Source: a plasmid. Taken from it: 64,000 nt of DNA. The notes below the pieces were generated by a model. The model did no database searches. It was given only the letters and a program-made list of their open reading frames with translations, and had not been told where the DNA came from. The stretch is taken from the sequence record NZ_CP118102.1; one strand, written 5' to 3'. Made by a program: the position numbers and the translations under genes. Shown here in pieces: positions 41,562 to 64,000 of the stretch (its first letter is position 1; the number at the start of each line of letters is the position of its first letter).

Positions 41562-41899
41562 CAACTCGAAAAAAACTCGAAGGTAACGGATTATGGGAGT
41601 CAAGTCGAATGATGCTCCCGGAGCATAAAGAGGTAATAATACGGCAGCAGGTTGAAGAAAACAAAAAAACAAAACCAATTCTAGATTCCCAAGAGGTAGA
41701 GCTCATCCAACTCGCACTTGCAGAGTCTCTTCATCAACATCGGCGTATAAATTTGCAATTATATGATGAATATAAAGACATACATCTGAGCGGGTTCGTT
41801 GTTTTGATAAATGCTTACAAAAGGGAATTTAAATTTGTCACTAATCGAGATGAATGGCATTGGGTAAGTGTTCAGGACATCGTTTCAGTTAGCTCATAA
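41558..41899 (+). CDS. YolD-like protein (functional UmuD analogue of Bacillus mobile elements)
   Basis: Signature WESSRMMLPEH. Overlaps the polymerase stop by 4 nt. Confidence 0.65.
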   Translation: MTTRKKLEGNGLWESSRMMLPEHKEVIIRQQVEENKKTKPILDSQEVELIQLALAESLHQHRRINLQLYDEYKDIHLSGFVVLINAYKREFKFVTNRDEWHWVSVQDIVSVSS

Positions 41900-44490: not shown

Positions 44491-44542
44491 GAAAATCAGT
44501 AACCGGTTATTTATAGTAATTTTAAAGGGAGGGTTAAGAGAA

Positions 44543-45778
44543 ATGAAAGCAGAGCAGTTAGAATTCGACCTAGAACCAACATCTATTTCACCCGAGTACA
44601 TCGTTACGAAATCAAATGCATTGATCGAAATGCCTCTTAACCTGGACCTGCAGGAATCACGAGTAATCTATACACTTATATCCTTGATTCAACCAGACGA
44701 TGAGGATTTTAAAACTCATTTTGTTAAAGTGAAAGAATTTGCTGATATTCTAGATCTGCAGGAAAAGAACTTCTATAAGAAAATAAGAGAAGTTGTAACT
44801 GGGCTGCAGCGAAAAACACTCGTTATCCGTGAAAATAATGGGGAATCAGAGCTAGTGGTAAACTGGCTTTCCGCGTCTCGTTATCACCATCGGAAAGGTG
44901 TAGTTGAATTAGAGTTCTCGCCTCAGTTGAAGCCTTACCTACTGAAGCTTAAGAAGGACTTTACCCGATATAAATTAGCTAACGTTCTGGTCCTTAGAAG
45001 TAAATACTCGATTCGGATGTATGAACTGCTGAAACGTTATCTCAATTTTGGAAAGAGAAGGTTCACACTTGAGCAGCTTCGTAACTTACTCGAGATTGAA
45101 CCAGGCAAATTAACGCATTATGGACACCTAAAGCAGCGGGTACTTTTAAAAACACAAGAGGAGCTGGCTGAGAAGACCGATATTTCTTTTGATTTTGAGG
45201 AGACAAAAGTCGGACATAAGGTAGTCGCAATTACTTGTTACATAAAACAAAATCACCGTAAAAAGTTGCTGCAAAAGGATCCTGATTTATTTGAAGAAGG
45301 TGTCACAGCGATATCTTTATTGACTCGCTTCGGTGTAAGAAAGTCTGTTGCTGAAGACTTACTTAAAACATTTGGCGAAAAGAGAGTCAAAGCCAATATT
45401 CAGTATGTTTATGAGACTAAACAAGAGGCGAGCATTGACAATATAAGCGGTTATATGGTTAAAGCAATCCGGGAGGATTTTGTGAATAACGGAGCAGGAT
45501 ATGAGGAGGAAGATCTTTATGATTTTGAGACATCGATTCCTCATTTGAATGCCCGCTTGCGCCGGCTGATTGAAAATCATCAGGAAAAGATGGATCAGGC
45601 GAAAAAGTCTGAAGAGAAAAAAATGCGTAGTGACATGACTCAAGCGGTTGTTGATGAAATTCACAGAACACTTGAAATACGCAGGAGCCGAAATCTTCGG
45701 CCACTTGATCCGGAGGATTTTGAGCAGAAGTATGTACGAGAGCTGTATGAATACTTATTGGAGCACCCCTATGTATGA
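44543..45778 (+). CDS. Rep_3-family (RepB-type, iteron-binding) plasmid replication initiator
   Basis: IVTKSNALIEMPLNLDLQESRVIYTLIS and SIRMYELLKRYLNFGKRRFTLEQLRNLL are Rep_3 signatures. RBS GGGAGGG. Iterons lie upstream. Confidence 0.8.
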   Translation: MKAEQLEFDLEPTSISPEYIVTKSNALIEMPLNLDLQESRVIYTLISLIQPDDEDFKTHFVKVKEFADILDLQEKNFYKKIREVVTGLQRKTLVIRENNGESELVVNWLSASRYHHRKGVVELEFSPQLKPYLLKLKKDFTRYKLANVLVLRSKYSIRMYELLKRYLNFGKRRFTLEQLRNLLEIEPGKLTHYGHLKQRVLLKTQEELAEKTDISFDFEETKVGHKVVAITCYIKQNHRKKLLQKDPDLFEEGVTAISLLTRFGVRKSVAEDLLKTFGEKRVKANIQYVYETKQEASIDNISGYMVKAIREDFVNNGAGYEEEDLYDFETSIPHLNARLRRLIENHQEKMDQAKKSEEKKMRSDMTQAVVDEIHRTLEIRRSRNLRPLDPEDFEQKYVRELYEYLLEHPYV

Positions 45779-46890
45779 TTGGGGTGCTTTTTCTTTCGAT
45801 TATTGCTTACAAAACCATGGATATCATTGATAATCTTGTCCTTAGCCTTGAGCCAAAGCTGAAGAGTGTTCCTTTCGTATCCATTGTCTTCGCAGTACTG
45901 TCTAAATTCCTTTTCTATCACAAATTGAGGAGTCACACTGGTAATATTCCTGAAGGGATCCAGGAAGCCACGAATCAGCAGGTATTCTTCAGGTCTCAGT
46001 CCGTTTATTACTTGTCCAAAGTTTTCAGTCTCAATAAGTTTTGATAAATACGGCACCGGCTGCCGGATTGATCCAATTCGAGTTTGAACATAATCAAGTG
46101 CAACAATAAAAGCATATTCTCCTTTTTGCAGCCACTTGGAATAGAGGTCCGGAGTAAGCTTGGCATCAATGAACTTTGTGAAAAGCTTGGCTTGATCCAA
46201 AAAGTAGTCCTGGTTGATATCCAGGTGAGCATGCGAGATGGAACGGGATAGTTGGATTTGCAAACTATTTATTCGATTTCCTGATTTTTGCTCGATGAAA
46301 TTTATCGACAAGCCAAGGAGAGATTTAATTTCTTCAGAAGCTGGCACCAGTATCCTTGCTTTAAAGTTAGCATAGCGTGGGTATTGATCATGTACATCTA
46401 ACATCTCTCTTAATTCTTCGATAGTAACAATATCACCGTTCCACACGCTGTCACGAACAAGAGTATACAATTTGATAGTAAAAGTACTTTTGGCTTTCAG
46501 CAGTAAGTTTATTTCATCGGTATTAAACATTTTGGCGAGTCTAAGAAACAGAATTTCTATGGCAGCATGCATCTTGAAGCTAATTACTTGGGATCTGCTA
46601 GGAATCTCGATATTTTCAATCAACCTTTTCTCGAATTCTAGAGACCGCTCTTGCACTAAGATTTCGGTTTCGGCCAGTTGGATAAAAGTCGATTTTAACT
46701 CTGTATATTTAATATTTTTATGGTTCATTCTCTCAGATAAATCGGAAAGTCTGATGACATATTGATGCAATGGAGAAATGTTCCAACGAATCAAGTCTGT
46801 AAGCCAAAGTAGAATCTTGATTTCAGTGAGGGTAAGTTTCTTTAATCGATTATTTGAGAACTTTTCAAAAAACATATACATATTCACCAC
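45769..46890 (-). CDS. second Rep_3-family-like replication initiator, convergent with the first
   Basis: TIKLYTLVRDSVWNGDIVTIEELREMLDV...YANFKARILVPASEEI resembles the Rep_3 C-terminal signature. 373 aa. Confidence 0.55.
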   Translation of the reverse strand: MVNMYMFFEKFSNNRLKKLTLTEIKILLWLTDLIRWNISPLHQYVIRLSDLSERMNHKNIKYTELKSTFIQLAETEILVQERSLEFEKRLIENIEIPSRSQVISFKMHAAIEILFLRLAKMFNTDEINLLLKAKSTFTIKLYTLVRDSVWNGDIVTIEELREMLDVHDQYPRYANFKARILVPASEEIKSLLGLSINFIEQKSGNRINSLQIQLSRSISHAHLDINQDYFLDQAKLFTKFIDAKLTPDLYSKWLQKGEYAFIVALDYVQTRIGSIRQPVPYLSKLIETENFGQVINGLRPEEYLLIRGFLDPFRNITSVTPQFVIEKEFRQYCEDNGYERNTLQLWLKAKDKIINDIHGFVSNNRKKKHPNHT

Positions 46891-50851: not shown

Positions 50852-52546
50852 ATGCCTGAAAGAAAATTTGCGTTTTTATCCGCAATAACTATATTTATTT
50901 TCCTATTAACAAATCTATTTATCTTCTATAACATAAGTAAAAAGACCTTTTTAAATCATATGTCAAGTGACACGATGGTCATTTCAGAATATATTTCTTC
51001 TGATATAGACAAATTTAGCAGCACTATTAAGATCTCCGATGCGCTATTATCGGATTCTTTACGAAATGCAGCTATAGCAATACGCAATAGTCTACCGATA
51101 AAGTATAAAGATGTTACAAATGATCAGTTGAAGGATTTAGCGAGTCGTTTAGAGGTCAGTGTGATTTCATTAATTGCACTAGTAAAGGGGGATTATACTG
51201 TTGTACTCTCTTCAGATGCATCCCGGATAGGTAAGAAGTTAAGTGATTGTGATACATGTGATACTGCGATGTCCGATCCCTATTGGTCTGTTAAGCCACC
51301 TGTGCAGTCTATTAATTCTGAGACTCATCATAAACATGGTTATTACTATGAAGGAGAAGCGGATTATATTATCAATCCTTATGTAGATAATGGATATTAT
51401 TTTTTAGTTAATCAAGAGATGGACGTAGATACATACGTAAATAACATTCTCCAAGACCATAAGGGGGAATTACTTGATATAACCGCGTTGTTTTGGATTG
51501 ATGTTATCGAACCTTCTGTAAATAGAGAGCTAACTATGACTTCCCCTCTTAGAGGAACTAATCCTACAGAGGAGGATATATTTTTAGGATCAAACTCATT
51601 TGCGAGTTCTAGGGATATAGATCACATGCAAAGAGCTGCATTAACGGGGGATTATACAACTTATGAAGACGTAATAAACGGCCAACGTGTCATAAAAACT
51701 TTCTACCCAGGTGTCGTTGATGGATATACGTTTATTATTAGCATCACAGGCAACATGGAAATATCGAATCCGGTATTGAACAGTCTTATTTCTAAGTACG
51801 GGATTCTTTTAACAAAAGTAACGATCATAAGTCTATTATTCGGGTGGGCTGTACTGAAGTTGTCTAAATATCCAGGTCGTTCTGTTACGAATGAGCATGA
51901 AAAAGCTGAGGGTAATATCGATCATTTGTGGGTCGAGGTGAAAGGTCAACGGCATGACTTAAACAATCATTTGGATACCCTGCATGGTCTTATTGAACTT
52001 GGATTTTATAATGAGGCAAAAGAATATATCAATGAGATAGTTGAAGAGACATCAACTATCAACGAGATAATTGATATTGGGCAGCCGGAAATTGCAGTGT
52101 TAATTCTATCTAAGATGTCTCAGGCAACTGCTAAGAATATCGATTTTCAGTTTGAAATTCTAAATAAAACTGAATCAAAATTAGTTCTTTTAGGAAGTAG
52201 GAAAATGGACGTAGTAAAAATCCTCGGAAACCTATTGGATAACGCATTTGAGGAGGTGATGAAGTTAAGTCCAGATCAAAGACTGGTTGTGCTTAATGGA
52301 GAAATACGTAACGATGTATTCCGATTTTTTATAAAAAACAAATTGAGCCAACACCTATCTCCTGCCATGATTAAGCAAATGTTCCTTCCAAGAAAGACTA
52401 CAAAAAACAGCACTGGAATTGGGCTAAGCATTGTTAATGAGAGGGTAAAACGTAACGAAGGAAGCATTATTTGTCAGCTTACGGAAGAAGGTTTTATCCA
52501 GTTTAATGTGTTGCTACCGACGGAACAGAGTAAACTAAGGGAATAG
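50852..52546 (+). CDS. membrane sensor histidine kinase (GHKL ATPase)
   Basis: Two TM segments flank a ~280-aa extracellular domain. H-box RHDLNNHLDTLHGL, N-box LLDNAFEE, G-box STGIGLSIV. Confidence 0.8.
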   Translation: MPERKFAFLSAITIFIFLLTNLFIFYNISKKTFLNHMSSDTMVISEYISSDIDKFSSTIKISDALLSDSLRNAAIAIRNSLPIKYKDVTNDQLKDLASRLEVSVISLIALVKGDYTVVLSSDASRIGKKLSDCDTCDTAMSDPYWSVKPPVQSINSETHHKHGYYYEGEADYIINPYVDNGYYFLVNQEMDVDTYVNNILQDHKGELLDITALFWIDVIEPSVNRELTMTSPLRGTNPTEEDIFLGSNSFASSRDIDHMQRAALTGDYTTYEDVINGQRVIKTFYPGVVDGYTFIISITGNMEISNPVLNSLISKYGILLTKVTIISLLFGWAVLKLSKYPGRSVTNEHEKAEGNIDHLWVEVKGQRHDLNNHLDTLHGLIELGFYNEAKEYINEIVEETSTINEIIDIGQPEIAVLILSKMSQATAKNIDFQFEILNKTESKLVLLGSRKMDVVKILGNLLDNAFEEVMKLSPDQRLVVLNGEIRNDVFRFFIKNKLSQHLSPAMIKQMFLPRKTTKNSTGIGLSIVNERVKRNEGSIICQLTEEGFIQFNVLLPTEQSKLRE

Positions 52547-52562
52547 AGTAAGAGGTGCAAAA

Positions 52563-53366
52563 ATGGAAACAAATTTTACAATTATTATAGCTGAAGATGG
52601 AGTTGTCCAACGAGGAAAATTAAAATTATATGTCGAGAAGATGGGACATACCGTCGTAGACATGGTAAGTTCGGGTTCACGTTTGATTGAAAGCTGCGCA
52701 ATATACCGACCGGACATTGTTCTCCTTGATATCGGACTCGAGAAGCTGGATGGATTATCCGCATTTCGTATACTTCGAGAAAGCGGGAATAACTCAAAAA
52801 TGATCTTTGTGACGGGTTCTGGGAATCCTACACATCTTTTAGCGAGCTATGATTTGGATAGCATTGATTACATCCTGAAACCCGTAACCTTTGAACGCCT
52901 AAAAAAGGCGATAGATAAAGCTGTTATACAGTTGAGTGCAGAGAACATCTTAAGTACAAGACAGAATGAGGATGTAAACATGATCACTGTTATGTCTAAC
53001 AGACGTGATCTACTAGTAAACGAGAAAAAGATACTTTTCGTCGAGAAGATTAACGATACAAAATGGATAAAGATTCATCTCAAAGATGGAGAAATCATTG
53101 AAACAAGAACACCTTTAAAAAAAATATTGGATCAGACATCGAGGATTATTTTTTGTCCACATCGGAGTTTTCTCGTAAACATGTTGTGTGTGGAGGAGGT
53201 AAGGGCAGATCCAGTCACTAAAGGAAACTATCTGATCTCATTGCAGAATTCTGTTGCCGTTATCTTACTTTCTAGAAACCACTATGAAGAATTCTTACAA
53301 CGACAATCTGAACTGAAGAATAGGATGAACATTGATGGCTGGTTAAGCTTGCAGGGAACCAATTGA
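52563..53366 (+). CDS. response regulator with a CheY-like receiver and a LytTR DNA-binding domain
   Basis: Receiver IVLLDIGLEKLDG. LytTR ILFVEKINDTKWIKIHLKDGEIIETRTPLKKIL. Confidence 0.8.
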   Translation: METNFTIIIAEDGVVQRGKLKLYVEKMGHTVVDMVSSGSRLIESCAIYRPDIVLLDIGLEKLDGLSAFRILRESGNNSKMIFVTGSGNPTHLLASYDLDSIDYILKPVTFERLKKAIDKAVIQLSAENILSTRQNEDVNMITVMSNRRDLLVNEKKILFVEKINDTKWIKIHLKDGEIIETRTPLKKILDQTSRIIFCPHRSFLVNMLCVEEVRADPVTKGNYLISLQNSVAVILLSRNHYEEFLQRQSELKNRMNIDGWLSLQGTN

Positions 53367-53562
53367 ATTAATATAATGATGGTATTACGATTTACCATTA
53401 TTTTTCATCACCGCTATCATTTCGGTAGGTGAGCGAGTAACCCAATTTAGGGAACATAAATATGAGGCATGAATTGCCGTGGAGAACAAAGACACGCCAG
53501 AGGTGTGTTTTTTTGTTTCTTCACGGCTTTTTTTGTGCTTAAAAACTGGGAGGAATTTAGAA

Positions 53563-54729
53563 ATGGCAAAAGCAGTGGAAGAACGTGTTACTACGGCAGT
53601 TAAGGCAGAGGGAGTATCGTTTACCGTTGATCATGAAGCGATTATGAACGTATTAACGACTTGTTCTAAGGTAGTGCCGAGAAGCAGCGTTGTTCCAATA
53701 CTGAAATGTATTAAGTTTGATTTAAACAAAGATGTTCTTTTCGTTACGGCAATGTCCGATTCCCAATCGGTTATTGTGAAACTGCAGGTAGAGAATACAG
53801 GAAATCAGGATGGGAGCTATCTATTTCCTTCAAGAGAAGGAATAGAACTTGTAAAACGTTTGCCAAGCGGTTCGCTATCGTTCAGTGTAAATGAGGCCTC
53901 TGTACGTATCTCGTACGGGAACAATGGTTCTGCATCGCTTAAGGTCTTGGATCCGGACGAGTATCCTCAGCTGCCGTCAGTGGCCGGAGTAAAGTTTGTG
54001 CCGGTTCCAATGGATGCCCTGCGAAAGGGTGCTGCAGCCCAGCGTTTTGCCTCAACTGATTCCAGTACTGCTATTCTCTGCGGTATTAATATCCGCAAAG
54101 TAGAGGATAAGCTTGGATTTACCGCGACGAATAGGCATCGGATATATGATTTCGTTTCTGACGTAAAGATACCAAATCCAGACGAGTTTCGTGGTGGAGT
54201 TATCGATGCTATAAATTTCAAAAGTATCGTAGATACTTTTAGAACCTCTGAAAGAATTGATTTTGCAGTGACGGATCATCATTTAATTTTAAGAGACCGT
54301 AGCAGCAATTCAGTGTACTTTGGTAGGCTAGTTGAGGGAAGTTATCCTGATATTGCGAAACTCTGTGAGATGCCTGAGCAGTCCTGTCTTGCAAGGATTC
54401 CGCTTGGGCGCCTCGACGAGACGTTGAACCGGATGTTATCGCTAGAATCCGAAAATCATCGTGTATATTTTTTACATGGAGATAACGGAGAGCTGGTTGT
54501 TAAATCGGAAAGCCACACAGGTGAGATTGTAGAGTCAATTGAAGGCTCCGTTGTAGATAAAAGTATGGGAATGATCAGGTTCAATGCTCGATATCTGAGG
54601 GATGCCCTTTCAGCCAGTGACCGGGATGTGAACGATGTTTTATTTAACATTACAGGTCAGAGTACTCCATCATATATTACGTATGATGGAGATCCATCGG
54701 TATTGAACGTTGTATTACCCGTGAGGTAA
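53563..54729 (+). CDS. DNA polymerase III beta sliding-clamp (DnaN) paralog
   Basis: Aligns by eye along its whole length with B. subtilis DnaN: LDPDEYPQLP versus LDADEYPHLP, ATNRHRIY versus ATDSHRLA, LVEGSYPDI versus LLDGNYPD, FNARYLRDAL versus FSPKYMLDAL, and the C-terminal VVLPVR versus LILPVRTY. Confidence 0.8.
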   Translation: MAKAVEERVTTAVKAEGVSFTVDHEAIMNVLTTCSKVVPRSSVVPILKCIKFDLNKDVLFVTAMSDSQSVIVKLQVENTGNQDGSYLFPSREGIELVKRLPSGSLSFSVNEASVRISYGNNGSASLKVLDPDEYPQLPSVAGVKFVPVPMDALRKGAAAQRFASTDSSTAILCGINIRKVEDKLGFTATNRHRIYDFVSDVKIPNPDEFRGGVIDAINFKSIVDTFRTSERIDFAVTDHHLILRDRSSNSVYFGRLVEGSYPDIAKLCEMPEQSCLARIPLGRLDETLNRMLSLESENHRVYFLHGDNGELVVKSESHTGEIVESIEGSVVDKSMGMIRFNARYLRDALSASDRDVNDVLFNITGQSTPSYITYDGDPSVLNVVLPVR

Positions 54730-54796
54730 TAAATATCAAGATAAAAGAGAGCTGCGCATGCGCGGCTCTTCTAATTTCTATTGGGGGTTAATAAAT

Positions 54797-55840
54797 ATGT
54801 CCGATAACATGAAGCGCATGTTTGATCGAATTATTAGAAACAAAATTCGTATGGGTAACTTTGAGACAACTGATCGAGATATGGACTGCGTACGAAAACT
54901 ATTACAATTTCCTGATCGGCCGTTCTCAGCTGCGGATTTTTGTGCAGGAAGTGGCCGTGCAATGGAGATTCTTACACAAGGTTCAAAGGCTGTAACGTTT
55001 GGTGTGGAACCTAATGAAGAGAAGTACCTGGAGCTCCGAGAGCGCGTACACCAAGCATGTTTTGGAGGCTATGAACAGTGCCGTATCTCTAAGGACTACT
55101 TCAGGCTCATATACTTAAATCCTCCCTATGATGATGATTCGGAATCAGAGGAGAGCAAGCGAGAGCGTAAAGAAAAGGTGTTCCTTCGGCACATCATTCA
55201 GTACTTGGCGGTTGACGGAATACTTATCTATAACATTCCGAGGCGACGTATGACTAAGGATATTGTCAATTTGCTAGTCACTAATCTGGATGAGATTAAT
55301 GTTTATCAATCTCATGACGATACATACGGTCAAGTATATGTTTTCGGTCGTAAACGATCTGTAAAGTTCATTGATCGACCGGAAGTACAAAGAATACTTG
55401 GATTAGTTGCTGAAGGAATTGTACTTAGTCGGTTACCTGAAGCAATAGATCCTATTTATAAAGTGCCGGCAGGGAACGTCACTCCAAAATACTTCAGATC
55501 GATAATCATGGACGTAGACCAGCTCAGGGTCGTTTCTTGCCATTCATCTTTGTCACGAAGAGGCATGGAATGGACGACACCTAAAGCACCTGCTTTGAAG
55601 CTGCAGCCGCTCCTTCCGGATAAAGAAATGCATAGGGTCCTAAGAATGGCCTCAGGCCGATTAAACGGAAAAGTTGGCAGCGGAGAACTTCTTCACGTTC
55701 TAAAAGGCATTGTGAAGAAGGATGCTACTACGGAAATTGAAAAAGTCGGGGATGAGACCATAGAGACGACAAGGGAAACCTTTAAGATTACCTTTCGTAT
55801 CGTGGACCGGTTTGGAAATATTCGAACGGTTCAGAGCTAA
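54797..55840 (+). CDS. N6-adenine DNA methyltransferase (small, with motif I before motif IV; gamma-like order)
   Basis: Motif I DFCAGSGRAMEIL. Motif IV LIYLNPPYDDD. A hairpin lies just upstream at 54748-54775. Confidence 0.65.
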   Translation: MSDNMKRMFDRIIRNKIRMGNFETTDRDMDCVRKLLQFPDRPFSAADFCAGSGRAMEILTQGSKAVTFGVEPNEEKYLELRERVHQACFGGYEQCRISKDYFRLIYLNPPYDDDSESEESKRERKEKVFLRHIIQYLAVDGILIYNIPRRRMTKDIVNLLVTNLDEINVYQSHDDTYGQVYVFGRKRSVKFIDRPEVQRILGLVAEGIVLSRLPEAIDPIYKVPAGNVTPKYFRSIIMDVDQLRVVSCHSSLSRRGMEWTTPKAPALKLQPLLPDKEMHRVLRMASGRLNGKVGSGELLHVLKGIVKKDATTEIEKVGDETIETTRETFKITFRIVDRFGNIRTVQS

Positions 55841-55874
55841 CATCTTAGAAAGCAAATGAGGGGGAATAGAGACC

Positions 55875-56516
55875 ATGAAATTTATGGAGTTTACTCATAA
55901 GGACATATATGTGAAGGTTCATTGCTCACTATTAGTGACAAAGTATGATTCAACTACTAAAAATAATTATCTCATTTATACGAATGTTATAGATATTGAT
56001 TCGCGTGTGCAGGCAGTTTTTGCTCAATTTCATCATGCCAAGAAAGCAGAAGATGTAACTTTTCGTTTCTATCATGCACCGCGTATTGGAGAGAAAGGGT
56101 ATGATCGATCCTCTTTTTATATTAAACCCTATGGAAAATACAAGCATCTCTCACAGCGCGAAGATGAGACGCTGGTTACCGGAATTGTTGCCAGTGAAAG
56201 AGTTTTATCGCGCCAGGACCAAGGTTATTGTATTTTTGCATGGGATGGCAATATACACGAAAGACTTTTCTGGGCAATCGATGCTTACTATGAGACGCCA
56301 ATGCTAGAAGAGTGGATCCCTTACTTATATCTTCGGCTATTCCAGGATGGTTATCTCGTTCAACTTGATGTATATGATTACACGGGAGACTATCAAAACC
56401 TGGTTGCTTTTGAGCTGCTCGCTGGAGAGGAAATATTGGATGAGTATATATCTTATGGACTCAGAACAGGGGCAATTCAACTGGTTGAGGATATAAATGG
56501 GGAGGCCGTTTCATGA
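55875..56516 (+). CDS. hypothetical protein (213 aa)
   Basis: The ORF sits between the MTase and the helicase; its stop overlaps the helicase start. Confidence 0.4.
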   Translation: MKFMEFTHKDIYVKVHCSLLVTKYDSTTKNNYLIYTNVIDIDSRVQAVFAQFHHAKKAEDVTFRFYHAPRIGEKGYDRSSFYIKPYGKYKHLSQREDETLVTGIVASERVLSRQDQGYCIFAWDGNIHERLFWAIDAYYETPMLEEWIPYLYLRLFQDGYLVQLDVYDYTGDYQNLVAFELLAGEEILDEYISYGLRTGAIQLVEDINGEAVS

Positions 56517-58777
56517 GTGAATCTTCAGAAATAAGCAATGTGGTGATTGAGGCAATTGACCCTGCTCTGGAAGAGAAAAAGGTTTCCTCTCTTTCCGATG
56601 TGGAATCTATTGGGGATTATTTAGGGTTATTTGGAGCAGACCTGATTAGACGTCTTAACGATGAATATGTACCAGTTCATCATCCAGGTCAAAATAAACC
56701 ACTCCAGTTGTTAGAGAACCTTAAGCGTCCATTATTTCAAGCACAAGCTCACGTCGTAACTGCATTAATTAAGGGGTTTCAGCGTCATCGTAATCTCTTA
56801 GTTATTGGTGAGCCTGGAACAGGGAAAACATCCGTCTCTATCTCAGTTTTTTATTCCCTAATCACAGAATTACTCCAGAAAAAATCTGGACGGGTTCTTT
56901 ATATGGTCCCAAATCATCTGATAAAGAAGACGAAGCGGGAATGGGGTATTCTGCTAGATAAGGATCTGTTTGAGGTTCACTTTCTATCAGACTATATTGA
57001 CGTTATCAAGCTCCGAGATAGCAGAAGATTGGAGACGAAACCTAAAAAAATTGAGGTTTACATCATTGCAAGGGATACTGCTAAACTAGGTTATATTTAC
57101 GAACCGGTTGCACATTGGTCGGACCGTACATATCAGCAGCAGTTTCAAAACAATGATGGGACAGTTCGAACTGTTGAAAAGGTTGCTTTTCGCGGATGGA
57201 GATGCCCCGATTGTGGTGGACAATTAATGAAAGAGAAAGAGGACAGTCTTGTACCGATGGAGTATGAGGACTTTTTTAATAAGCATGGAAAGCCTACGCG
57301 TAGAAAAACGAACTTGTACTGTTCTAATCAAGTACGCCTCTATAAAAATGTAGATCCCGACAAGGACGAGACCCGTATTTGTGGGTCAAGACTTTGGCAG
57401 GCGAAGAATTCGAAAAAATCATATATATCTGGTAAGCCGAAACCGGTTGCTGGGGTGGCGCCACGAAAAGTATCTCCTGCGGATTTGTTTAAGCGTTGGT
57501 TTAAAGGCAAATTTGACCTGGCCATCGGTGACGAATGCCATGAGTTAGCAGGAGGGAGCGCTCAAGCTCATGCTTTTCATGTATTTTTGAATTGTGCCAA
57601 ACGAGGGATCGCAATGACCGGAACTTTGTCCAATGGTTATGCTTCTTCCTTATTCGAATTGTTTTTCCGGATGTTTCCCTCTCGTCTGAAGCAGATGGGC
57701 TTTAATTGGGGAGACGTAGGAAAGTGGGTCGATTTGTACGGTGTACGGGAAAGGGTCACTAAAATACGTGATGACGGAGATTTGAACAGCTCTAGTAACG
57801 GGAAGTCGAAAAGGACAAGTGTTAAGGAGTTGCCGGCTGCCGCACCGCAGCTCTTCACGGACATACTCAGTGACGTTGCAGTTTTTATACAGATGGCTGA
57901 TATGTTCGAAGTCCTGCCGGAACTCAAAGAAGGACCGATGAGTGTTCCTCTTGAGGGTGAAAGAAGACTTATAAGCTGCAAAACCCAAATTGTTCGACGA
58001 CCAGGTAGAAAGAGAAAGATTGAAAAGAAAATGAGGTTACTTGCGCCGGATTGGTATCTCAGAAAAAATCTGACTGAAGTCGAAAATCGTCTGCGAGAAG
58101 CTGTGCAAAAAGAGCTCGCTGCAGGTGGCCAGTCGGTACTTCTAGGGAGCCTTGTGAATACACTTTTGAGTTATTCAGATGTCCCTTTCAATTTCGAAGG
58201 TGTCCTTCATCCGGATACAGGAGAATGCATAGTGTCGGATAGTTACCGGCTTAGTGAGCGCCTATTATATCCTAAGGAGCTTCAGATGATCAAGTTTGTC
58301 CGATCGCAGCTAAAGCTCGGGCGAAGGGTAGGCATTTATGCGACTTATACGGGGAAAATGGGTACTCTGCAGCGACTCTCTCAGTTACTTGAAGAAAGAG
58401 GGATAAAGACAGCCCTACTTGGAACAGAGGTAAAGGGACCAGATCGAGAAGAGTGGATTGCCGAAAGGGTAAGGGAAGGTGCTCAGGTAATACTGACGAA
58501 TCCAATCCTGGTCAGCACTGGCCTTGATTTATTGATGTTTCCTTCACTTTATTTCTATCAGACTGGGCACCGTCTGAATATTGTGCGGCAGGCATCAAGA
58601 CGGCATTGGCGGATAGGTCAGCCGAATAAATGTCTTACTGTTTACAACTCATATCAGGGGACAATGCAGGAGCTGGCCATTAATCTTATGGCAGCCAAAA
58701 TGAGCGCTGCCCAAGCCTTAGAAGGGGTACCGCCAACAAAACGCGGAAAACGTACGCTAAGCCCATTAATTGAGTAA
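56513..58777 (+). CDS. SF2 DExH/SNF2-like helicase with an inserted Cys4 zinc ribbon. Its native 3' end is replaced by a Tn3-family transposon end.
   Basis: Walker A GEPGTGKTS. Motif II AIGDECHELAG. Motif V VSTGLDL. Motif VI QASRRHWRIGQ. Zinc ribbon WRCPDCGG...YCSNQ...ICGS. The last 16 codons read through a 38-bp Tn3-type IR. Confidence 0.75.
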   Translation: MSESSEISNVVIEAIDPALEEKKVSSLSDVESIGDYLGLFGADLIRRLNDEYVPVHHPGQNKPLQLLENLKRPLFQAQAHVVTALIKGFQRHRNLLVIGEPGTGKTSVSISVFYSLITELLQKKSGRVLYMVPNHLIKKTKREWGILLDKDLFEVHFLSDYIDVIKLRDSRRLETKPKKIEVYIIARDTAKLGYIYEPVAHWSDRTYQQQFQNNDGTVRTVEKVAFRGWRCPDCGGQLMKEKEDSLVPMEYEDFFNKHGKPTRRKTNLYCSNQVRLYKNVDPDKDETRICGSRLWQAKNSKKSYISGKPKPVAGVAPRKVSPADLFKRWFKGKFDLAIGDECHELAGGSAQAHAFHVFLNCAKRGIAMTGTLSNGYASSLFELFFRMFPSRLKQMGFNWGDVGKWVDLYGVRERVTKIRDDGDLNSSSNGKSKRTSVKELPAAAPQLFTDILSDVAVFIQMADMFEVLPELKEGPMSVPLEGERRLISCKTQIVRRPGRKRKIEKKMRLLAPDWYLRKNLTEVENRLREAVQKELAAGGQSVLLGSLVNTLLSYSDVPFNFEGVLHPDTGECIVSDSYRLSERLLYPKELQMIKFVRSQLKLGRRVGIYATYTGKMGTLQRLSQLLEERGIKTALLGTEVKGPDREEWIAERVREGAQVILTNPILVSTGLDLLMFPSLYFYQTGHRLNIVRQASRRHWRIGQPNKCLTVYNSYQGTMQELAINLMAAKMSAAQALEGVPPTKRGKRTLSPLIE
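58724..58761 (+). mobile_element. 38-bp Tn3-family terminal inverted repeat (outer GGGG to inner TAAG), the left end of the downstream transposon
   Basis: GGGGTACCGCCAACAAAACGCGGAAAACGTACGCTAAG. Its length, the GGGG start and the ACGCTAAG end match Tn21/Tn1546-group IRs. Confidence 0.6.
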
Positions 58778-58839
58778 TAAGCCGGTTTTCCCCGTACGCT
58801 AAAGGGGTACCGGCTCCGAAATTCGCAACGTGTTAATTG

Positions 58840-61797
58840 TCAGTAGAGAGGTTTCTTTAATGGCCGTAACGACGTTAGAGTTGTTGCTTGTTTTAGATCA
58901 AACTTGTACTCCCCTAGAAAATTAATATGTTCCCATCCTAGAGGTGAGGTATGTTGCATTAGTTCTTCTTTAAACGTTCCTTGGGTCTTTTTATATTCTG
59001 TTGCATGAGACAAATAGACAGTATTCCATACGCTGATTGCATTAATCAAAATGTTCAAGGCGCTGGCTCGTTGGAGTTGATCTTGCAGTGCGCGCTCCCG
59101 TAACTCCCCGTGTTTACCGAAGAAAATCGCTCTGGCCAGTGCGTTCATAGCCTCACCTTTATTCAGCCCCCTATGAATCTTCCGGCGCAGGGCTTCGCTT
59201 GATATGTAATCCAGAATAAAGATTGTCTTTTCAATGCGCCCCATTTCACGTAGAGCGGTTGCTAAGCGATTCTGCCGCGAGTAGGAACCGATCTTCCCCA
59301 TGATAAGTGATGCAGATACTGTCCCTTCTCGAATAGAATGGGCTAGCCGCAGCACATCATCATAATTTTCCTGAATGACCTTCGTATTGATTTGACCACG
59401 CAGCAGTTTCTCCAGTTTTGGGAAATCAGTAGGCTTCCCGATGATGTAAAGCTTAGAATCAGAAAGATCTCGTAAGCGCGGCGCAAATCTGAATCCGAGT
59501 AGTTGAGTCAAACCAAAAACTTGATCTGTATATCCTGCAGTGTCCGTATAATGTTCTTCGATGGTCAAGTCAGTTTCATGATGAAGTAGTCCATCGATCA
59601 CATGAACAGCATCCCTAGCATTCGTGTTAATCACTTTAGAATAGAAGCTTGAAAATTGATCACTGACAAAACGATAAATGGTTGCGCCCTTGCCAGTTCC
59701 GTAGTGCGGATTAGCATCCGCATGAAGCGCAGCTACGCCAATCGGCACCCTCATTCCGTCTGACGAAGACGTGGTGCCATCGCCCCAATAGGAGGGCAAA
59801 GATAACTTGTGGTGGAAGTTGACGAGGACAGCTTGAGCTTTATTCATTGCATCCTCATATAGCCGCCATTGTGCCGTATTGGCCATTTGCCGGTATGAAA
59901 TATCCGGCGTGGCATCCCCCATCTTGGTCAATCCAATGTTCGTTCCCATCGCCATCAGTGTTGCCATGAGAATTAACGTTTCTTCTTCATTGGGAATCCG
60001 ATTTGTTGAAGCATGGATAAATTGTTCATGAAAACCAGTCCAATGCGCTACCTCCATTAAGACCTCAGTCAATTTAATACGTGGAAGTAGTTCGTACAAG
60101 GATGAGCTAAAATTTCTGGCATCCTCCGGAGTATCTTTCTCTAGGCGGCTAATGTGAAGTTTTCCTTGCTCAAAGTTAATACCTTCTAGATCCTCAATGT
60201 TATTCGAAACCCATTCTAAGCGCTGTATCAGAGATGCGGTACGTTCGGCTAGGTAATCGCTCGCAGTCATGCTAACTACCAATTTTGTTTCATCAGGCTG
60301 AATACGGCTCCATTCATCTTTGGAGACAAGATACTCATCAAAATCTTTATGCTGCCGGCTCCCGACAATGGACACATCACCGGAGCGAACATAATTACGC
60401 AGCTCAGTTATTACAGCCATTTCGTAATAATGACGGTTAATCGTTCCGTCATCATCGTAGACATGCTTTTGCCAACGATTTGTTACAAAATTTAAGGGTG
60501 CGTCTTTTGGTACTTTACGTTTACCAGTTTCATTAATGTCCCTTATAACATCAATAGCCTTCATAAGTGGCTCTGCGGATTTATTAGAACGGAATTCCAA
60601 CGTTTTCAGCAGTGTTGGTGTATATTTGCGCAGCGTGTAAAACTTCTTCTCCAGCAAATCCAAATAGTCGTAATCAATGGGACGGGCCAGTCGCTTTGCT
60701 TCCTCTACAGATGCGACGAGCTGATCCCAGGGCATTACCGTCTCCAACGCAATAAATGGGTCTATGCCTTCGTCCCTAGCTTTTATGAGTGCTGCGCCAA
60801 GATCAGCATAATGAACCACCTTTTCGTTAATCGATTTTCCATTTTGTTTTTGGATTTCTTCTTGAGCCTTACGGCCTTTGGAATGTAGCTGTAATATCTG
60901 ACGGTCGTGAATTTCAAATGCTTGATCCGTTAAATCTTGTGTTAGATCGAGTAAATAAGCAACTAAAGTAGCATATTTCTTGGGGTCATCGAAACGACGG
61001 AAGGACTGCGGTTCATACCTTGCCCCGATTTTGGAGAGCTGACGTAATCGGTTTGGATGAATTCCCTTTGTATCGATTTGAAGCTGGACTTTTCGTATAT
61101 ATTCAAGTTTTTCAATGATCTTAAGGAAAGCATCCGGGGAACAGGTGCCTGGTACTTCTCTTAGCCATGCCAGATACGTTTTGTTGCTCTCCGGCATTGG
61201 GGATAGGATGTTTTCAAGTTTATCGACCTGCTCCACTGATAAGGAAGAAATAAGCATTTTATATATTTTCTCCTCGGCCCGTTGCCTCACTTCCCACACA
61301 ACCCGTTCGATTGTAGTCATCCCAGGTATAATGATTTTCTGTTTTCGTAATTCATCAAGGGCTACACGGATTAAATACATGGAGTTACCATTTTCTAACG
61401 AAAAATTCAGCATGATATTGGATAAGAACCGATATTCACGAAGCGTGAAGTTCCGATACCCATAGGTTTGCCGAATCTCCTCCATATGTTCTCGTCTAGT
61501 CGGTTCCCGTTGGGCATAAAGGGGAAATACATCAGGTGCCACGCCAACCTGCTTGGCAATGTAGCTTATTACAGAATCCGGTATGTGTTTCAAATCAGAT
61601 AAAGACCATCCTGGATAACGCAGGATGGCCAATTGAACGGCAAAGCCTAATCGGTTATGATCACGGCGATGTTTATTGATGATATCGAGATCGTGTTGCG
61701 AAAATGTATAGTACGTACCTAAATCCCAATCGTCGTCTGAAGGGATTTGCATAAATTCTGCGCGCTGATCTAATGTTAATAATTCCTTTCCTCTCAA
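58840..61797 (-). CDS. tnpA: Tn3-family transposase TnpA
   Basis: 985 aa. The N-terminus MRGKELLTLDQRAEFMQIPSDD...FTLREYRFL is characteristic of Tn3-family TnpA. Confidence 0.85.
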   Translation of the reverse strand: MRGKELLTLDQRAEFMQIPSDDDWDLGTYYTFSQHDLDIINKHRRDHNRLGFAVQLAILRYPGWSLSDLKHIPDSVISYIAKQVGVAPDVFPLYAQREPTRREHMEEIRQTYGYRNFTLREYRFLSNIMLNFSLENGNSMYLIRVALDELRKQKIIIPGMTTIERVVWEVRQRAEEKIYKMLISSLSVEQVDKLENILSPMPESNKTYLAWLREVPGTCSPDAFLKIIEKLEYIRKVQLQIDTKGIHPNRLRQLSKIGARYEPQSFRRFDDPKKYATLVAYLLDLTQDLTDQAFEIHDRQILQLHSKGRKAQEEIQKQNGKSINEKVVHYADLGAALIKARDEGIDPFIALETVMPWDQLVASVEEAKRLARPIDYDYLDLLEKKFYTLRKYTPTLLKTLEFRSNKSAEPLMKAIDVIRDINETGKRKVPKDAPLNFVTNRWQKHVYDDDGTINRHYYEMAVITELRNYVRSGDVSIVGSRQHKDFDEYLVSKDEWSRIQPDETKLVVSMTASDYLAERTASLIQRLEWVSNNIEDLEGINFEQGKLHISRLEKDTPEDARNFSSSLYELLPRIKLTEVLMEVAHWTGFHEQFIHASTNRIPNEEETLILMATLMAMGTNIGLTKMGDATPDISYRQMANTAQWRLYEDAMNKAQAVLVNFHHKLSLPSYWGDGTTSSSDGMRVPIGVAALHADANPHYGTGKGATIYRFVSDQFSSFYSKVINTNARDAVHVIDGLLHHETDLTIEEHYTDTAGYTDQVFGLTQLLGFRFAPRLRDLSDSKLYIIGKPTDFPKLEKLLRGQINTKVIQENYDDVLRLAHSIREGTVSASLIMGKIGSYSRQNRLATALREMGRIEKTIFILDYISSEALRRKIHRGLNKGEAMNALARAIFFGKHGELRERALQDQLQRASALNILINAISVWNTVYLSHATEYKKTQGTFKEELMQHTSPLGWEHINFLGEYKFDLKQATTLTSLRPLKKPLY

Positions 61798-61846
61798 TGG
61801 TTACACACCTTTCACTAAAATCAGAAGTTCAGTCAATAGGAGATGT

Positions 61847-62428
61847 TCAGGTCACCTGAAGGCTTTGTGTAGTCTTATTCCGGTTTGTAAGTGTTTGATA
61901 GATTTTTGCTTTAGATACACCGGTTCGTTCTGTTATTTCCTTAATGGTGTACTTTTCACTATCGTAAAGTGTAAGAGCCATGTCAATTTTGTTTTTATCC
62001 ATTGGAGGACGACCGCCTTTCCTGCCTCTCGCACGTGCAGCCTGTAATCCAGCAATGGTTCGCTCTCGGATTGTCTCTGCTTCCATCTCCGCCAGTCCAG
62101 CCATGATAGCAAAGAAAAGTTTCCCAGCGGGCGTACTCGTATCAACACCAAGAGTAATGATCTGCAGTCCAATCCCTATTTCCTGAAGGCCATGCGATAA
62201 TTCGATTAGTTGCCGCGTGGTTCTTCCCAAACGATCCAGCTTCCAAATGACAAGCGTATCACCTGGTCTCAAATATTCTAGGCAACGGGTCAGCTCCACT
62301 CGATCACTTTTCTTCCCAGAAGCCTTCTCCTCAAATATTCGCTCGCAGCCAGCAGCTTTTAACGTGTCGATCTGTAGGTTCAGTGATTGATCAGCTGTCG
62401 AGACACGAGCATAACCAATTTTGGCCAC
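61847..62428 (-). CDS. tnpR: serine recombinase (resolvase) TnpR
   Basis: MAKIGYARVSTADQSLNLQIDTLKAAGCERIF, with catalytic Ser in VST and a C-terminal HTH. Confidence 0.85.
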   Translation of the reverse strand: MAKIGYARVSTADQSLNLQIDTLKAAGCERIFEEKASGKKSDRVELTRCLEYLRPGDTLVIWKLDRLGRTTRQLIELSHGLQEIGIGLQIITLGVDTSTPAGKLFFAIMAGLAEMEAETIRERTIAGLQAARARGRKGGRPPMDKNKIDMALTLYDSEKYTIKEITERTGVSKAKIYQTLTNRNKTTQSLQVT

Positions 62429-62693
62429 ATGAATATCTCCTTTTGTCTATTAAACATATATTTATGATAATTTATACACTTTGAATTTTATACGACTTAA
62501 TAGACAATAACAATGCTATTTCTTACTGTATTTTAAGCTATGCACAAAAAGTATACAAAACGATCGTTTTTTAGACCCGACAATAGATACAACAAGCTGA
62601 TATATAATAAAACGCAGGACGCGGCGGTGAAGTAGCTTTTGTGATTCAACTAGATGGTAGCATATTCAACTTCTTGAAGGGAAATAATGTTCC

Positions 62694-62725
62694 TTGACCA
62701 TGTACCATGGTACATGGTCTATACT
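62694..62725 (+). promoter_or_regulatory. mer operator/promoter. The -35 is TTGACC and the -10 is TATACT, with a 20-bp spacer holding a perfect 22-bp palindrome.
   Basis: TTGACCATGTACCATGGTACATGGTCTATACT. The palindrome is ACCATGTACCATGGTACATGGT. The long spacer is the MerR hallmark. Confidence 0.75.
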
Positions 62726-62744
62726 TTATTTAGAGGTGATGAAA

Positions 62745-63170
62745 ATGAATTATCGCTCCGGAGATATTTCTAAATTGTGTAACGTTAACAAAGAAACATT
62801 AAGATATTACGAACGAAAAGGTCTGATTCATGAACCAGTAAGATCGGATGCTGGCTACAGGCTTTATCCGGAAGAAACGATAAACCGAATCATGTTCATT
62901 AAACGCATACAGGAGCTTGGTTTTACATTGTCTGAAATTGATAAATTGCTTGGTGTTGTTGATAAAGACGATGTGAGATGTGCGGGTATGAATGATTTCG
63001 TTGTTCAAAAGCTGGAAGATGTTCAGTCGAAAATTAGAGACTTTCAACGAATCGAAACGATGCTAAAAGATTTAAAAGACCGCTGTCCAGATGAAAAAGC
63101 GATACACGAATGCCCAATCATCGAAGCGCTCATTGACAATAATCAAAAGGAAAAGGAGGAAGTCCAATGA
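62745..63170 (+). CDS. merR: MerR-family mercuric-resistance regulator (Gram-positive MerR1-like)
   Basis: HTH ISKLCNVNKETLRYYERKGLI. A C-terminal Cys is present in RCAGMNDF and DRCPDEKAIHECPII. Closely resembles Bacillus RC607 MerR1. Confidence 0.8.
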   Translation: MNYRSGDISKLCNVNKETLRYYERKGLIHEPVRSDAGYRLYPEETINRIMFIKRIQELGFTLSEIDKLLGVVDKDDVRCAGMNDFVVQKLEDVQSKIRDFQRIETMLKDLKDRCPDEKAIHECPIIEALIDNNQKEKEEVQ

Positions 63171-63418
63171 AAGAAAATGCAAAAAAAATAGGTTGGGGCT
63201 TTTTAGCTCTGCTTTCCTGTCCTTGCCATCTTGTTTTGATTCTCCCTTTACTTGCGGGAACTACATTTGGAGCGTATTTTGCTCTCCATCAAACAGCCGT
63301 CAGTGTTATTTTAGGAATCGTATTTGTAATTTCTCTTGTCATGATGTTTAAACGAGCCAGCAAACAAGCAAAAACCGATGAATCACACGATTGCTGCTCA
63401 GTTCCGGAGCGAAAATGA
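63167..63418 (+). CDS. small mercury-transport-like membrane protein (MerE/MerT-like)
   Basis: First TM with a CPC motif (LLSCPCHLVLIL). C-terminal HDCC. Confidence 0.5.
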   Translation: MKENAKKIGWGFLALLSCPCHLVLILPLLAGTTFGAYFALHQTAVSVILGIVFVISLVMMFKRASKQAKTDESHDCCSVPERK

Positions 63419-63423
63419 GGTGA

Positions 63424-63735
63424 ATGATTTTGAGAGAAAAAATGACTAGCTTGGCAACGATATTTTCAGCGTTTCTTATGTCCGGCTGTTGCCTCGGGCC
63501 CTTAATTCTCATTCCGTTTGGGTTATCAGGTTTTGCAGGAACGCTTGCAATTTTTTCAATCAAGTACCAACTGTTTCTTATGGTCATGACGATATTATTT
63601 CTTGGTGTATCGTTTTATTTGGTTTATGGACGAAAATGCAAAAAGAAAAGTACGGTCATCACATTATGGATATCGACCGTTTTGGTTTTAGGAGCATTTT
63701 TATATTTATGGTTGGCTGAAAGTGGACTGTTATAA
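63424..63735 (+). CDS. MerT-like membrane transport protein
   Basis: First TM with GCC (LMSGCCLGPLILIPFGL). Three hydrophobic helices. Confidence 0.5.
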   Translation: MILREKMTSLATIFSAFLMSGCCLGPLILIPFGLSGFAGTLAIFSIKYQLFLMVMTILFLGVSFYLVYGRKCKKKSTVITLWISTVLVLGAFLYLWLAESGLL

Positions 63736-63760
63736 GAAAGAGGTGTGTTACGTGAGAGCA

Positions 63761-64000
63761 ACAATGGGAATTATGATGTTATTAACTCTTTTATTATTGG
63801 GTACTGCTTGTGGTAACAATGAAAATACGGTGGAAGCTGCAGCCGCGCAAAGTACACCCGTTGCAAATGGATCAGCGACGTTCACGGTGACGGGACTTGA
63901 TTGCTGCCCGCCTTCAGTGATTCAAGATTTAATTTCAAAGGTCGATGGGGTTAGCAAAGTAGACATAGAACCCATGGGAAGCAAAGGGAAAGTTACGGTT
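63761..64000 (+). CDS. MerP-like heavy-metal-binding lipoprotein, partial at the window end
   Basis: GTG start. Lipoprotein-like signal LLLGTAC. HMA-like FTVTGLDCCPPSVIQDL. Confidence 0.45.

Follow-up and report, generated by a model that had tools for sequence, protein, structure and literature searches.

Why does a plasmid keep a sliding clamp of its own beside a DNA methyltransferase and a helicase? The question is raised by a 64,000-nucleotide stretch of a plasmid (sequence record NZ_CP118102.1), which in its full length is called the window here. Positions 53,563 to 58,777 of the window hold four co-directional open reading frames (ORFs), coding for a DnaN-like beta sliding clamp paralog, a DUF6094 methyltransferase (MT), a 213-amino-acid protein (X213) and a Zn-ribbon helicase (HEL). 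An earlier reading of the letters without database searches, referred to here as the sequence-only reading, had described these as a four-gene module, and the ORF list contains all four of them. The genes and their order are real, but the helicase is not intact. Its 754-aa ORF is broken by a transposon and has lost the C-terminal tail, and it is this tail, as found on intact relatives, that seems to connect the clamp with the other genes.

The helicase tail and the private clamp

In bacteria, the clamp-binding consensus is QL[S/D]LF, or more generally QxxLF, and in PolC the motif is C-terminal (PMC12309361). The intact form of the helicase gene is found in the Paenibacillus urinalis plasmids NZ_CP118110.1 and NZ_CP118105.1, where it encodes 941 residues, the last 20 of which are ...KTKKKYNVGAGQIAFKF (the C-terminal 15-20-mer is, for example, KKKYNVGAGQIAFKF). 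All Paenibacillaceae orthologues end in ...KTKKxYNVxxGQ[IFY]AFNF-COOH. At the same position, the Clostridial orthologues carry NQLSLFDFVA, GQLSLFDLIAS or GQLTMFEQAG, the Planctomycete orthologues RQLSLFLDG, RQLCLFDG or EQLCLFG, and the proteins of L048 and P0049 NQLVLLF. A search for a QL[SD]LF-like motif, which the sequence-only reading had proposed, was therefore rewarded at the extreme C-terminus of the intact helicase and its orthologues. In form as well as in location, the tail appears to match a beta-clamp-binding motif.

Considering that a loose hexapeptide regular expression for the clamp motif matches many proteins internally, we counted only motifs in the last 12-14 residues and compared them with controls. 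A Q-type motif lay within the last 12 residues in 31 of 37 complete orthologues and in 6 of 455 control ORFs from the same loci (nominal Fisher p = 4e-37). Since the orthologue sequences are related to one another, this p value is nominal and the weight of the enrichment rests on the three phyla in which the tail occurs. A profile of the helicase, searched against 1.84 billion representative sequences, matched 2,276 proteins at E<1e-30. From these we took the best new matches as 146 family representatives, all at E<1e-154 and reduced at 50% identity. The Q-type motif was present in the last 14 residues of 54 of the 146, against 0-1 in the control windows, and other representatives ended in related forms such as QLGWDF and QLAFDF or in an NNPxxLF-type tail. 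The 1425-aa helicase homologue P0053 is interrupted by an intein (Hom_end, LAGLIDADG_3 and Intein_splicing domains), and its tail still reads QLAFAF. In a phage-type subgroup (loci L054-L056 and representatives such as P0210, P0221 and P0258), the proteins have an NNPxxLF-like tail where others have the Q-type motif, and this tail may serve for docking on another clamp that is encoded by the phage.

The window DnaN was recognised over residues 19-388 by PF00712 (3.7e-19), PF02767 (2.4e-11) and PF02768 (5.6e-6). Against TIGR00663, the model of the housekeeping equivalog, it scored 129.1 bits, under the trusted cutoff of 137.65, and it seems to be a divergent paralog rather than a chromosomal dnaN product. 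Its match in PHROGs was phrog_947, a processivity factor (4e-39), and the best solved structures were 7evp (9e-30) and Bacillus subtilis DnaN, 4tr6 (3e-27). The segment TATNRHRIY (residues 187-195) aligns with TATDSHRLA, and the C-terminal VVLPVR with LILPIR, of a chromosomal clamp. By analogy with the Escherichia coli clamp, these TDxHRL and LPxR stretches may be elements of the peptide-binding pocket.

To place the genes in their context, one genome per species was surveyed, which gave 43 loci that were analysed by local phmmer and hmmsearch. The sequence-only reading had proposed to check whether clamp, methyltransferase and helicase co-occur elsewhere, and the order DnaN–MT–X–HEL is indeed repeated in Paenibacillaceae. 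DnaN is upstream of the methyltransferase in seven of the eight complete loci and not within reach in the remaining one. In the other Paenibacillus loci, dnaN stands anywhere from 0.07 to 3.9 kb away from the methyltransferase gene, whereas MT, X and HEL are tightly packed throughout. In Clostridia (at least 14 loci), a helicase of about 1010 aa is followed immediately by a DnaN paralog and then by genes for a DUF3268 Zn-finger protein, a DUF1281_C protein, a MoxR AAA+ ATPase, a single-stranded DNA-binding protein (SSB) and a VWA protein. No DUF6094 methyltransferase was found within 10 kb of the Clostridial helicases. In Planctomycetes (about 10 loci), the order is MT, an ORF of about 200 aa and HEL, with no DnaN; in the locus examined, a small resolvase-N protein precedes HEL. 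The methyltransferase gene adjoins the helicase gene in Planctomycetes, in L048 and in IMG/VR contigs. The IMG/VR contigs show two forms: a DUF6094 methyltransferase gene with an X–HEL fusion gene next to it on its downstream side, or a single protein of 1250-1690 aa that unites methyltransferase and helicase. The pairwise links among DnaN, MT, X and HEL are each conserved in other phyla too, and the clustering of the four genes appears to exceed chance.

The Paenibacillus and Clostridial clamps are poorly matched to each other. The window DnaN scored at most 43 bits against the DnaNs of the Clostridial elements and 99-107 bits against Bacillales-type chromosomal clamps, which suggests that the element DnaNs of the two lineages are only distantly related. 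Separate recruitment of a clamp gene beside the helicase is thus favoured over chance adjacency.

In the window, identity to the P. urinalis plasmids ends at 58725, where a Tn3-family insertion truncates the helicase after codon 738. The ORF at 56513-58777 consists of native residues 1-738 and 16 transposon-encoded residues, with the stop at 58775-58777, and residues 739-941 of the native protein, 203 in all and the docking tail among them, are gone. The terminal repeat has the ends of a Tn3-type 38-bp repeat, GGGGTACC...ACGCTAAG, in the GGGG...TAAG form. With this 38-bp terminal inverted repeat, a large TnpA and a serine resolvase, the insertion has the characters of the Tn3 family; the second repeat and the 5-bp target duplication lie beyond the end of the window. 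The copy of the module in the window is probably uncoupled from the clamp or inactive. Other copies are damaged as well. In a P. ihuae plasmid the helicase is split, with about 2.6 kb between its two parts, in Paenibacillus sp. Cedars the helicase is also split, and in PCH8 the methyltransferase gene is frameshifted (the set of disrupted copies comprises L009:6329-11833, L002:10547-13392 and L007:8267-9312). The module appears to have been lost or inactivated repeatedly in Paenibacillus plasmids.

The gene products and the methylase–SNF2 dyad

The methyltransferase matched Pfam DUF6094 at 1.4e-29 (103.4 bits against a gathering threshold of 22.8). Its motif X, GNFETT, starts at residue 20 and is followed by motif I, DFCAGSG (residues 47-53), and motif IV, NPPY (residues 108-111), and a C-terminal domain of about 130 aa follows the NPPY-bearing part. 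The motif order X, I, IV and a fold closest to solved gamma-class adenine methyltransferases are both those of the gamma class. Based on the motif order and NPPY, we infer a gamma-class (EcoKI/TaqI-like) N6-adenine DNA methyltransferase. A phmmer search of the protein against PDB sequences found nothing. The AlphaFold2 (AF2) model had a mean predicted local distance difference test score (pLDDT) of 81.6, with a single low-confidence N-terminal helix ahead of motif X. The coordinates that we use are those of the RefSeq start; the longest ORF begins at 54758 and overlaps a hairpin.

X213, an unknown protein in the sequence-only reading, seems to be no independent novelty but a detached N-terminal domain of the helicase family. 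It had no match in Pfam, NCBIfam, PHROGs or PADLOC. Its AF2 model (pLDDT 86, predicted template modelling score 0.82) consists of an N-terminal beta-barrel and a C-terminal alpha/beta domain, and structure comparison of the model gave no convincing neighbour. The C-terminal half resembles the N-terminal extension of Clostridial helicases (hhalign probability 91%, E 1e-6; hmmsearch about 1e-5 in each direction), and the X domain is fused to the helicase in 75 of the 146 family representatives. Because of this homology and these fusions, we regard X213 as a detached helicase subunit rather than an unrelated gene product. The stop codon of X213 overlaps the helicase start in an ATGA, just as had been noticed from the letters, and in Bengtsoniella the X domain is likewise a separate ORF of 245 aa whose stop overlaps the helicase start.

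The helicase carries motif I GEPGTGKT (residues 99-106), motif II DECH (residues 340-343) and the SNF2-typical motif VI QASRRHWRIGQ. The zinc ribbon had been placed between motifs I and II, and C231 to C290 do lie there. Alignments A1 and A4, with their Paenibacillus, Clostridia-type and phage-type homologues, show no variation at any of the four cysteines (C231, C234, C270 and C290). When the helicase profile was compared with solved structures, the top 60 were almost all from the SNF2 family (CHD1L at 3e-14, CHD4, SWR1, INO80, Rad54, SsoRad54, RapA and DDM1). PHROGs gave phrog_62 (8e-24), and a precomputed PF00176 is present on the homologues P0048 and P0049. A phmmer search of the helicase against PDB sequences found nothing, and the SNF2 placement came only from the profile search. 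By this profile evidence the helicase appears to belong to the SWI2/SNF2 ATPase clade.

A methyltransferase paired with such an ATPase is a known arrangement. Iyer et al. 2017 described a 'DNA methylase-helicase dyad' of an EcoKI/TaqI-like NPP(Y/F) methyltransferase and an SNF2-clade ATPase, which occurs in phages, in plasmids and in conjugative transposons and has as its archetype P1 DarB, a protein that protects DNA against type I restriction (PMC5512222). As in the DarB dyad, the present adenine methyltransferase is encoded upstream of the SNF2 ATPase, or stands N-terminal to it, the carrier is a mobile element, and the two occur as fused proteins or as neighbouring genes. The methyltransferase region aligns with DarB residues 90-256 and helicase motif I with DarB 830-906, in the same order. 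It had been suggested that methyltransferase and helicase are split domains of proteins that are fused elsewhere, and DUF6094–helicase fusions of about 1230-1650 aa were recovered by protein search among distant helicase homologues. The module therefore seems to represent the known methylase–SWI2/SNF2 dyad of mobile elements in split form, and it matches that dyad in architecture and carrier. The sequence-only reading had also allowed for a pair that would prove to be an already described split anti-restriction protein, and this came true in part, as the split methyltransferase–SNF2 pairing was described generally by Iyer et al.

Several features set the module apart from the dyad. It lacks the LPD36 four-helix domain, for which a motif X that starts at residue 20 of the methyltransferase leaves no room, and it is not part of a polyvalent protein. 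Moreover, the Cys4 zinc ribbon, the X N-terminal domain and the clamp-binding tail with a dedicated DnaN are absent from the dyad paper, in which the word 'clamp' occurs 0 times (PMC5512222). We found no description of a linkage between clamp and helicase or methyltransferase, of private clamps, or of X as a helicase domain, in a searchable literature that is incomplete. Three things seem to be new here: that the clamp-binding tail is conserved, that two lineages have distinct private clamps, and that X can be identified as a domain of the helicase.

The tail can also be compared with those of known clients of the bacterial beta clamp, such as PolC, Pol IV, MutS/MutL, Hda and RK2 TrfA. Like them, the helicase presents a Q-x-x-hydrophobic-(x)-F/L peptide at the extreme terminus after a flexible basic linker. 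Unlike them, it is an SNF2-type translocase coupled to a methyltransferase, whereas the known clients are polymerases, proteins of mismatch repair or regulators of the initiator, and in Paenibacillus the non-canonical GQxAFNF motif is paired with a private divergent clamp. In eukaryotes, PCNA-linked DNMT1, LSH/DDM1 and ZRANB3 serve replication-coupled maintenance methylation and SNF2 fork remodelling. By analogy, the module may use a sliding clamp to recruit a methyltransferase and/or an SNF2 motor to nascent DNA; there is no homology with the PCNA systems beyond the SNF2 and Rossmann folds, and the motif and clamp are bacterial.

The plasmid and the gene neighbourhood

The features of the module and of the transposon are collected in Table 1. 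NZ_CP118110.1 is 99.98% identical to window positions 33399-58725, and NZ_CP118105.1 has the same module sequence; both are circular plasmids of 190-206 kb. The plasmid encodes a coupling protein and a replication-relaxation protein/relaxase besides a type IV secretion system of the Tcp-like kind, which bears out the earlier view of a mobile element and indicates that it is a conjugative plasmid. Large Paenibacillaceae plasmids have a backbone order in common, in which DnaA_N-HTH, Rep3 initiators, a toprim/DUF3854 protein, DnaN–MT–X–HEL and a 114-aa gene are followed by an HTH protein, a 220-aa protein, a DinG-like helicase and YdjM. Within this family of large conjugative plasmids, the module seems to form an operon of the backbone.

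Table 1. Coordinates of the module, of the inserted transposon and of the flanking hairpins (window numbering unless a locus is named)
Feature	Position	Strand	Basis or remark
DnaN-like beta sliding clamp paralog, 388 aa	53563..54729	+	three clamp Pfam domains
Putative DUF6094 gamma-class N6-adenine-type DNA methyltransferase, 347 aa	54797..55840	+	Pfam DUF6094, motifs X/I/IV
X213, putative detached N-terminal accessory domain of the helicase family, 213 aa	55875..56516	+	homology to helicase N-terminal extensions
Predicted Zn-ribbon SWI2/SNF2-type ATPase, native residues 1-738	56513..58725	+	core complete through motif VI
Cys4 zinc ribbon	57203..57388	+	C231, C234, C270, C290, between motifs I and II
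Terminal 38-bp inverted repeat, Tn3-family transposon	58724..58761	+	sequence GGGGTACCGCCAACAAAACGCGGAAAACGTACGCTAAG; unique in window
Tn3-family transposase, 985 aa	58840-61797	minus	ORF list; segment 74% identical to an annotated Tn3-family transposase on a Bacillus pseudomycoides plasmid
Serine resolvase of the same transposon, 193 aa	61847-62428	minus	ORF list
Terminator-like hairpin	53488..53512	+	11-pair stem then T-run; ends upstream histidine-kinase/LytTR operon; module 5' boundary
GC-rich hairpin between dnaN and MT gene	54747..54770	+	10 pairs, 6 GC; weak T tail
Strong terminator 3' of intact helicase gene	L001:25994-26023		terminator-like hairpin

Terminator-like hairpins bracket the module on both sides, and the hairpin inside it, between dnaN and the methyltransferase gene, may be an attenuator or a partial terminator. 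Directly upstream of dnaN, at window positions 50852-53366, are genes for a SpoOB-type/GHKL histidine kinase and a LytTR response regulator, whose conservation extends no further than L002 and L010, the closest relatives. The pair could be a regulator of the module or plain cargo. As it is restricted to the closest relatives, it was treated as cargo and excluded from the module; the downstream DUF4365 gene was excluded likewise, since only the closest relatives have it and the terminator lies in between. The 114-aa gene (L001:26112-26456, with homologues in L002 and L004-L010) is found 3' of the helicase gene in every Paenibacillaceae locus, 0.1-3 kb off. It had no match in PADLOC or Pfam. The cargo between the helicase gene and the 114-aa gene varies (a GAF protein, a DUF4365 protein and others), and the site looks like an insertion hotspot.

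Other parts of the plasmid were observed in passing. Two Rep3-family initiator genes (44429-45778, plus strand; 45769-46890, minus strand) are convergent at window positions 44429-46890 with a 10-nt overlap, and a DnaA_N–HTH protein is encoded nearby (42362-43348, minus strand); such a double-initiator arrangement is unusual. A PolIV–YolD pair is encoded at 40290-41899. Inside PolIV, at residue 369 of 423, stands the canonical clamp-binding motif QVSMF, which makes PolIV a possible second client of the plasmid clamp. A Gabija system lies at 12470-15754 (on the related plasmid, PADLOC matched GajA at 1e-239 and GajB at 2e-182); compared with NZ_CP118110.1, the window has a 1-nt deletion at 13542 that breaks gajA into two ORFs and is either a frameshift or a sequencing error. 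Positions 29988-33720 encode a 631-aa protein with a DndC/PAPS-reductase-like domain (PADLOC DndC, 2e-50) and then a 609-aa protein without a PADLOC match. The DndC-like gene may be a DNA-modification gene in a putative establishment region. Within the Tn3 transposon (58724-64000 of the window), there are also genes for a MerR-like regulator (62694-63170) and, at 63167-63735, for small membrane proteins rich in cysteine, and these look like the start of a mercury-resistance operon.

Among the loci outside Paenibacillaceae, the DUF3268–DUF1281_C–MoxR–SSB–VWA set follows helicase–DnaN in L032:11542-17077 and also in L022, L027 and L033. On an unrelated metagenomic contig (L052:5413-8674), an AAA_5 and VWA pair stands ahead of a fused DUF6094–helicase protein, and the recurrence of AAA and VWA hints at a further conserved partner. 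Helicase loci also include RepA_N, AbiJ and a group II intron reverse transcriptase, and the helicase genes seem to stand in those parts of mobile elements that serve replication or establishment. A possible true phage context was considered in the 'Bacteriophage sp.' contig MT835540.1 (L053); since it encodes a secretin-like protein and an O-antigen acetylase, and no clear structural genes were seen on it, we did not count it as evidence.

What the module may do and what it would mean

What, then, is the clamp for? We suggest, giving the idea about an even chance of being right, that the clamp holds a complex of ATPase and methyltransferase on element DNA that has just been replicated, so that the DNA is quickly methylated and protected against restriction. 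The tail of the ATPase would dock on clamps that stay behind on freshly made DNA after their loading at primer–template junctions, and these could be the clamps of the plasmid or of the host. ATP-driven translocation on double-stranded DNA would move the gamma-class adenine methyltransferase along the nascent duplex. In a new recipient, the element DNA would receive its methylation as soon as the complementary strand has been made, and again after each round of replication, and the methylation would shield it from host restriction in a replication-coupled version of the role presumed for P1 DarB. Because MT and X are each fused to the ATPase in other lineages, the products of MT, X and HEL very probably act as one complex. 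The genes found around the helicase, among them Rep3, a toprim/DUF3854 protein, SSB, RepA_N and Pol III alpha, also speak for a part in the replication and establishment of mobile elements. Samuel et al. 2024 reported an enrichment of orphan methyltransferases and SSBs in the leading regions of plasmids, and showed that an anti-defence island in such a region, of Gram-positive origin, includes darB genes (PMC11541004).

A broader form of this proposal is offered more tentatively, as an idea that we doubt somewhat more than we believe. Across at least three phyla, mobile elements would possess a replisome-coupled 'epigenetic writer', in which a clamp-anchored SNF2 motor with X and the Zn ribbon carries a DUF6094 methyltransferase. 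The Paenibacillus and Clostridial private DnaNs would have been acquired separately, GQxAFNF would have diverged together with its clamp into an orthogonal pair, and the whole would amount to a bacterial PCNA-type maintenance methylation that serves anti-restriction.

Several points weigh against the tethering proposal. Clamp binding, complex formation, DNA methylation and anti-restriction are all deduced from sequence. The Paenibacillus tail, Q-x-A-F-N-F, is a non-canonical hexapeptide. The Q-type tail is present in only 37% of the family representatives, and the fused methyltransferase–helicase proteins are mostly without it. Similarity to P1 DarB by hhalign is that of a weak homology (methyltransferase, probability 77%, E 2e-5; helicase, probability 46%, E 2e-4), and tblastn of the helicase against 50,697 phage records did not recover P1. 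The relaxase gene is about 58 kb from the module, whose place in a leading region would depend on the position of oriT. Finally, the Clostridial loci combine the clamp with a helicase that has no DUF6094 methyltransferase within 10 kb, so the link to the clamp does not require the methyltransferase, and these loci appear to fit a role in replication or repair equally well.

Such a role is the strongest competitor, and we consider it unlikely without being negligible. The helicase would be a clamp-tethered SNF2 fork remodeller or protein-displacement motor, comparable to ZRANB3/HLTF on PCNA, RapA or Mfd, and the methyltransferase would be an optional addition for timing or strand marking. The module does lie within a backbone with Rep3, toprim/DUF3854, a DinG-like helicase and PolIV–YolD. 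On a phage-like contig, methyltransferase and helicase are flanked on either side by a Pol III alpha gene, and genes for NAD-ligase, ThyX and a DHH protein are close by; the L048 locus includes NrdD, SSB, DUF3854, DnaN and a PD-(D/E)xK nuclease. An intein such as that of P0053 is typical of replication proteins, and it is in keeping with this role that Clostridial loci retain helicase, DnaN and SSB without the methyltransferase. However, the fusion of methyltransferase and ATPase in many lineages argues that methylation is central, the architecture is that of the DarB-type anti-restriction dyad, and the Planctomycete loci are not in obvious replication modules.

The sequence-only reading had also considered a modification-based conflict system, for which no conserved nuclease or effector spoke, and had doubted that the combination is a named defence system, which was supported. 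In a defence or exclusion system that depends on modification, the methyltransferase would mark self and an SNF2 ATPase that rides on clamps would detect or attack foreign DNA that replicates without methylation, perhaps together with a nuclease encoded nearby; we regard this as improbable. A methyltransferase with an SF2 or SNF2 ATPase is shared with MADS, DISARM, BREX and type I/III restriction–modification (R-M), and forms the core of type I/III R-M and DISARM. The plasmid also carries Gabija and the DndC-like protein, and two genes downstream of the helicase gene in P. urinalis is a DUF4365 protein with a borderline Pfam score (22.4 bits, cutoff 24.3). PADLOC gave weak matches to mad2 (4e-6, methyltransferase core) and mad8 (1e-4, P-loop region), which are two of the eight MADS profiles, and a marginal type IIG match in the P-loop region (about 7e-4). 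We rejected membership in MADS, because only generic core regions match and the other six mad profiles matched none of the four proteins. Among the module proteins, PADLOC detected no DISARM (Drm) or BREX (Pgl, Brx) component and no HsdS, HsdR or Res partner, and the full-length helicase had no significant PADLOC match. Unlike the defence systems, the module has no nuclease or specificity subunit and stands in a replication or establishment context: no nuclease or other effector is conserved in its core across the 43 genomic and 16 viral loci. DUF4365 is confined to the closest relatives, the conserved 114-aa neighbour resembles nothing in PADLOC or Pfam, a terminator separates the module from the downstream genes, and the family is common in viral contigs and replication modules.

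Least of all do we expect the clamp to be a plain plasmid replication clamp (for instance for PolIV) that stands by chance beside an unrelated methyltransferase–helicase pair. In favour of this view are the varying distance from dnaN to the methyltransferase gene in Paenibacillus, the hairpin between them and the internal QVSMF of the plasmid PolIV. Against it, the C-terminal clamp-binding motif of the helicase is conserved across three phyla, and a DnaN that is only distantly related to that of the plasmid adjoins the helicase in Clostridia. The expectation that the clamp would be linked to the other genes rather than merely adjacent is thereby favoured, through the conserved tail motif and the presence of DnaN beside the helicase in two lineages.

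If the tethering proposal is true, it bears on the methylase–SNF2 dyad, which ranks among the most common architectures for anti-restriction in phages and conjugative elements. The docking tail would explain how the enzyme finds the DNA of the element and modifies it fast enough, as the enzyme would be delivered to DNA during its synthesis, and the separate recruitment of private clamps points in the same direction, toward delivery to nascent DNA. The transposon-disrupted allele of the window and the intact P. urinalis plasmids form a natural experiment, the intact allele being that of P. urinalis 2022CK-00829 and 2022CK-00833. Considering that the family is large, thousands of genes now listed as 'DEAD/DEAH box helicase', 'DUF6094' or hypothetical would gain an annotation. 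With the SNF2 translocase and its methyltransferase, the bacterial sliding-clamp interactome would gain a client of a new class, and this suggests that the DnaN paralogs of mobile elements would serve element-specific clients rather than duplicate the host clamp.

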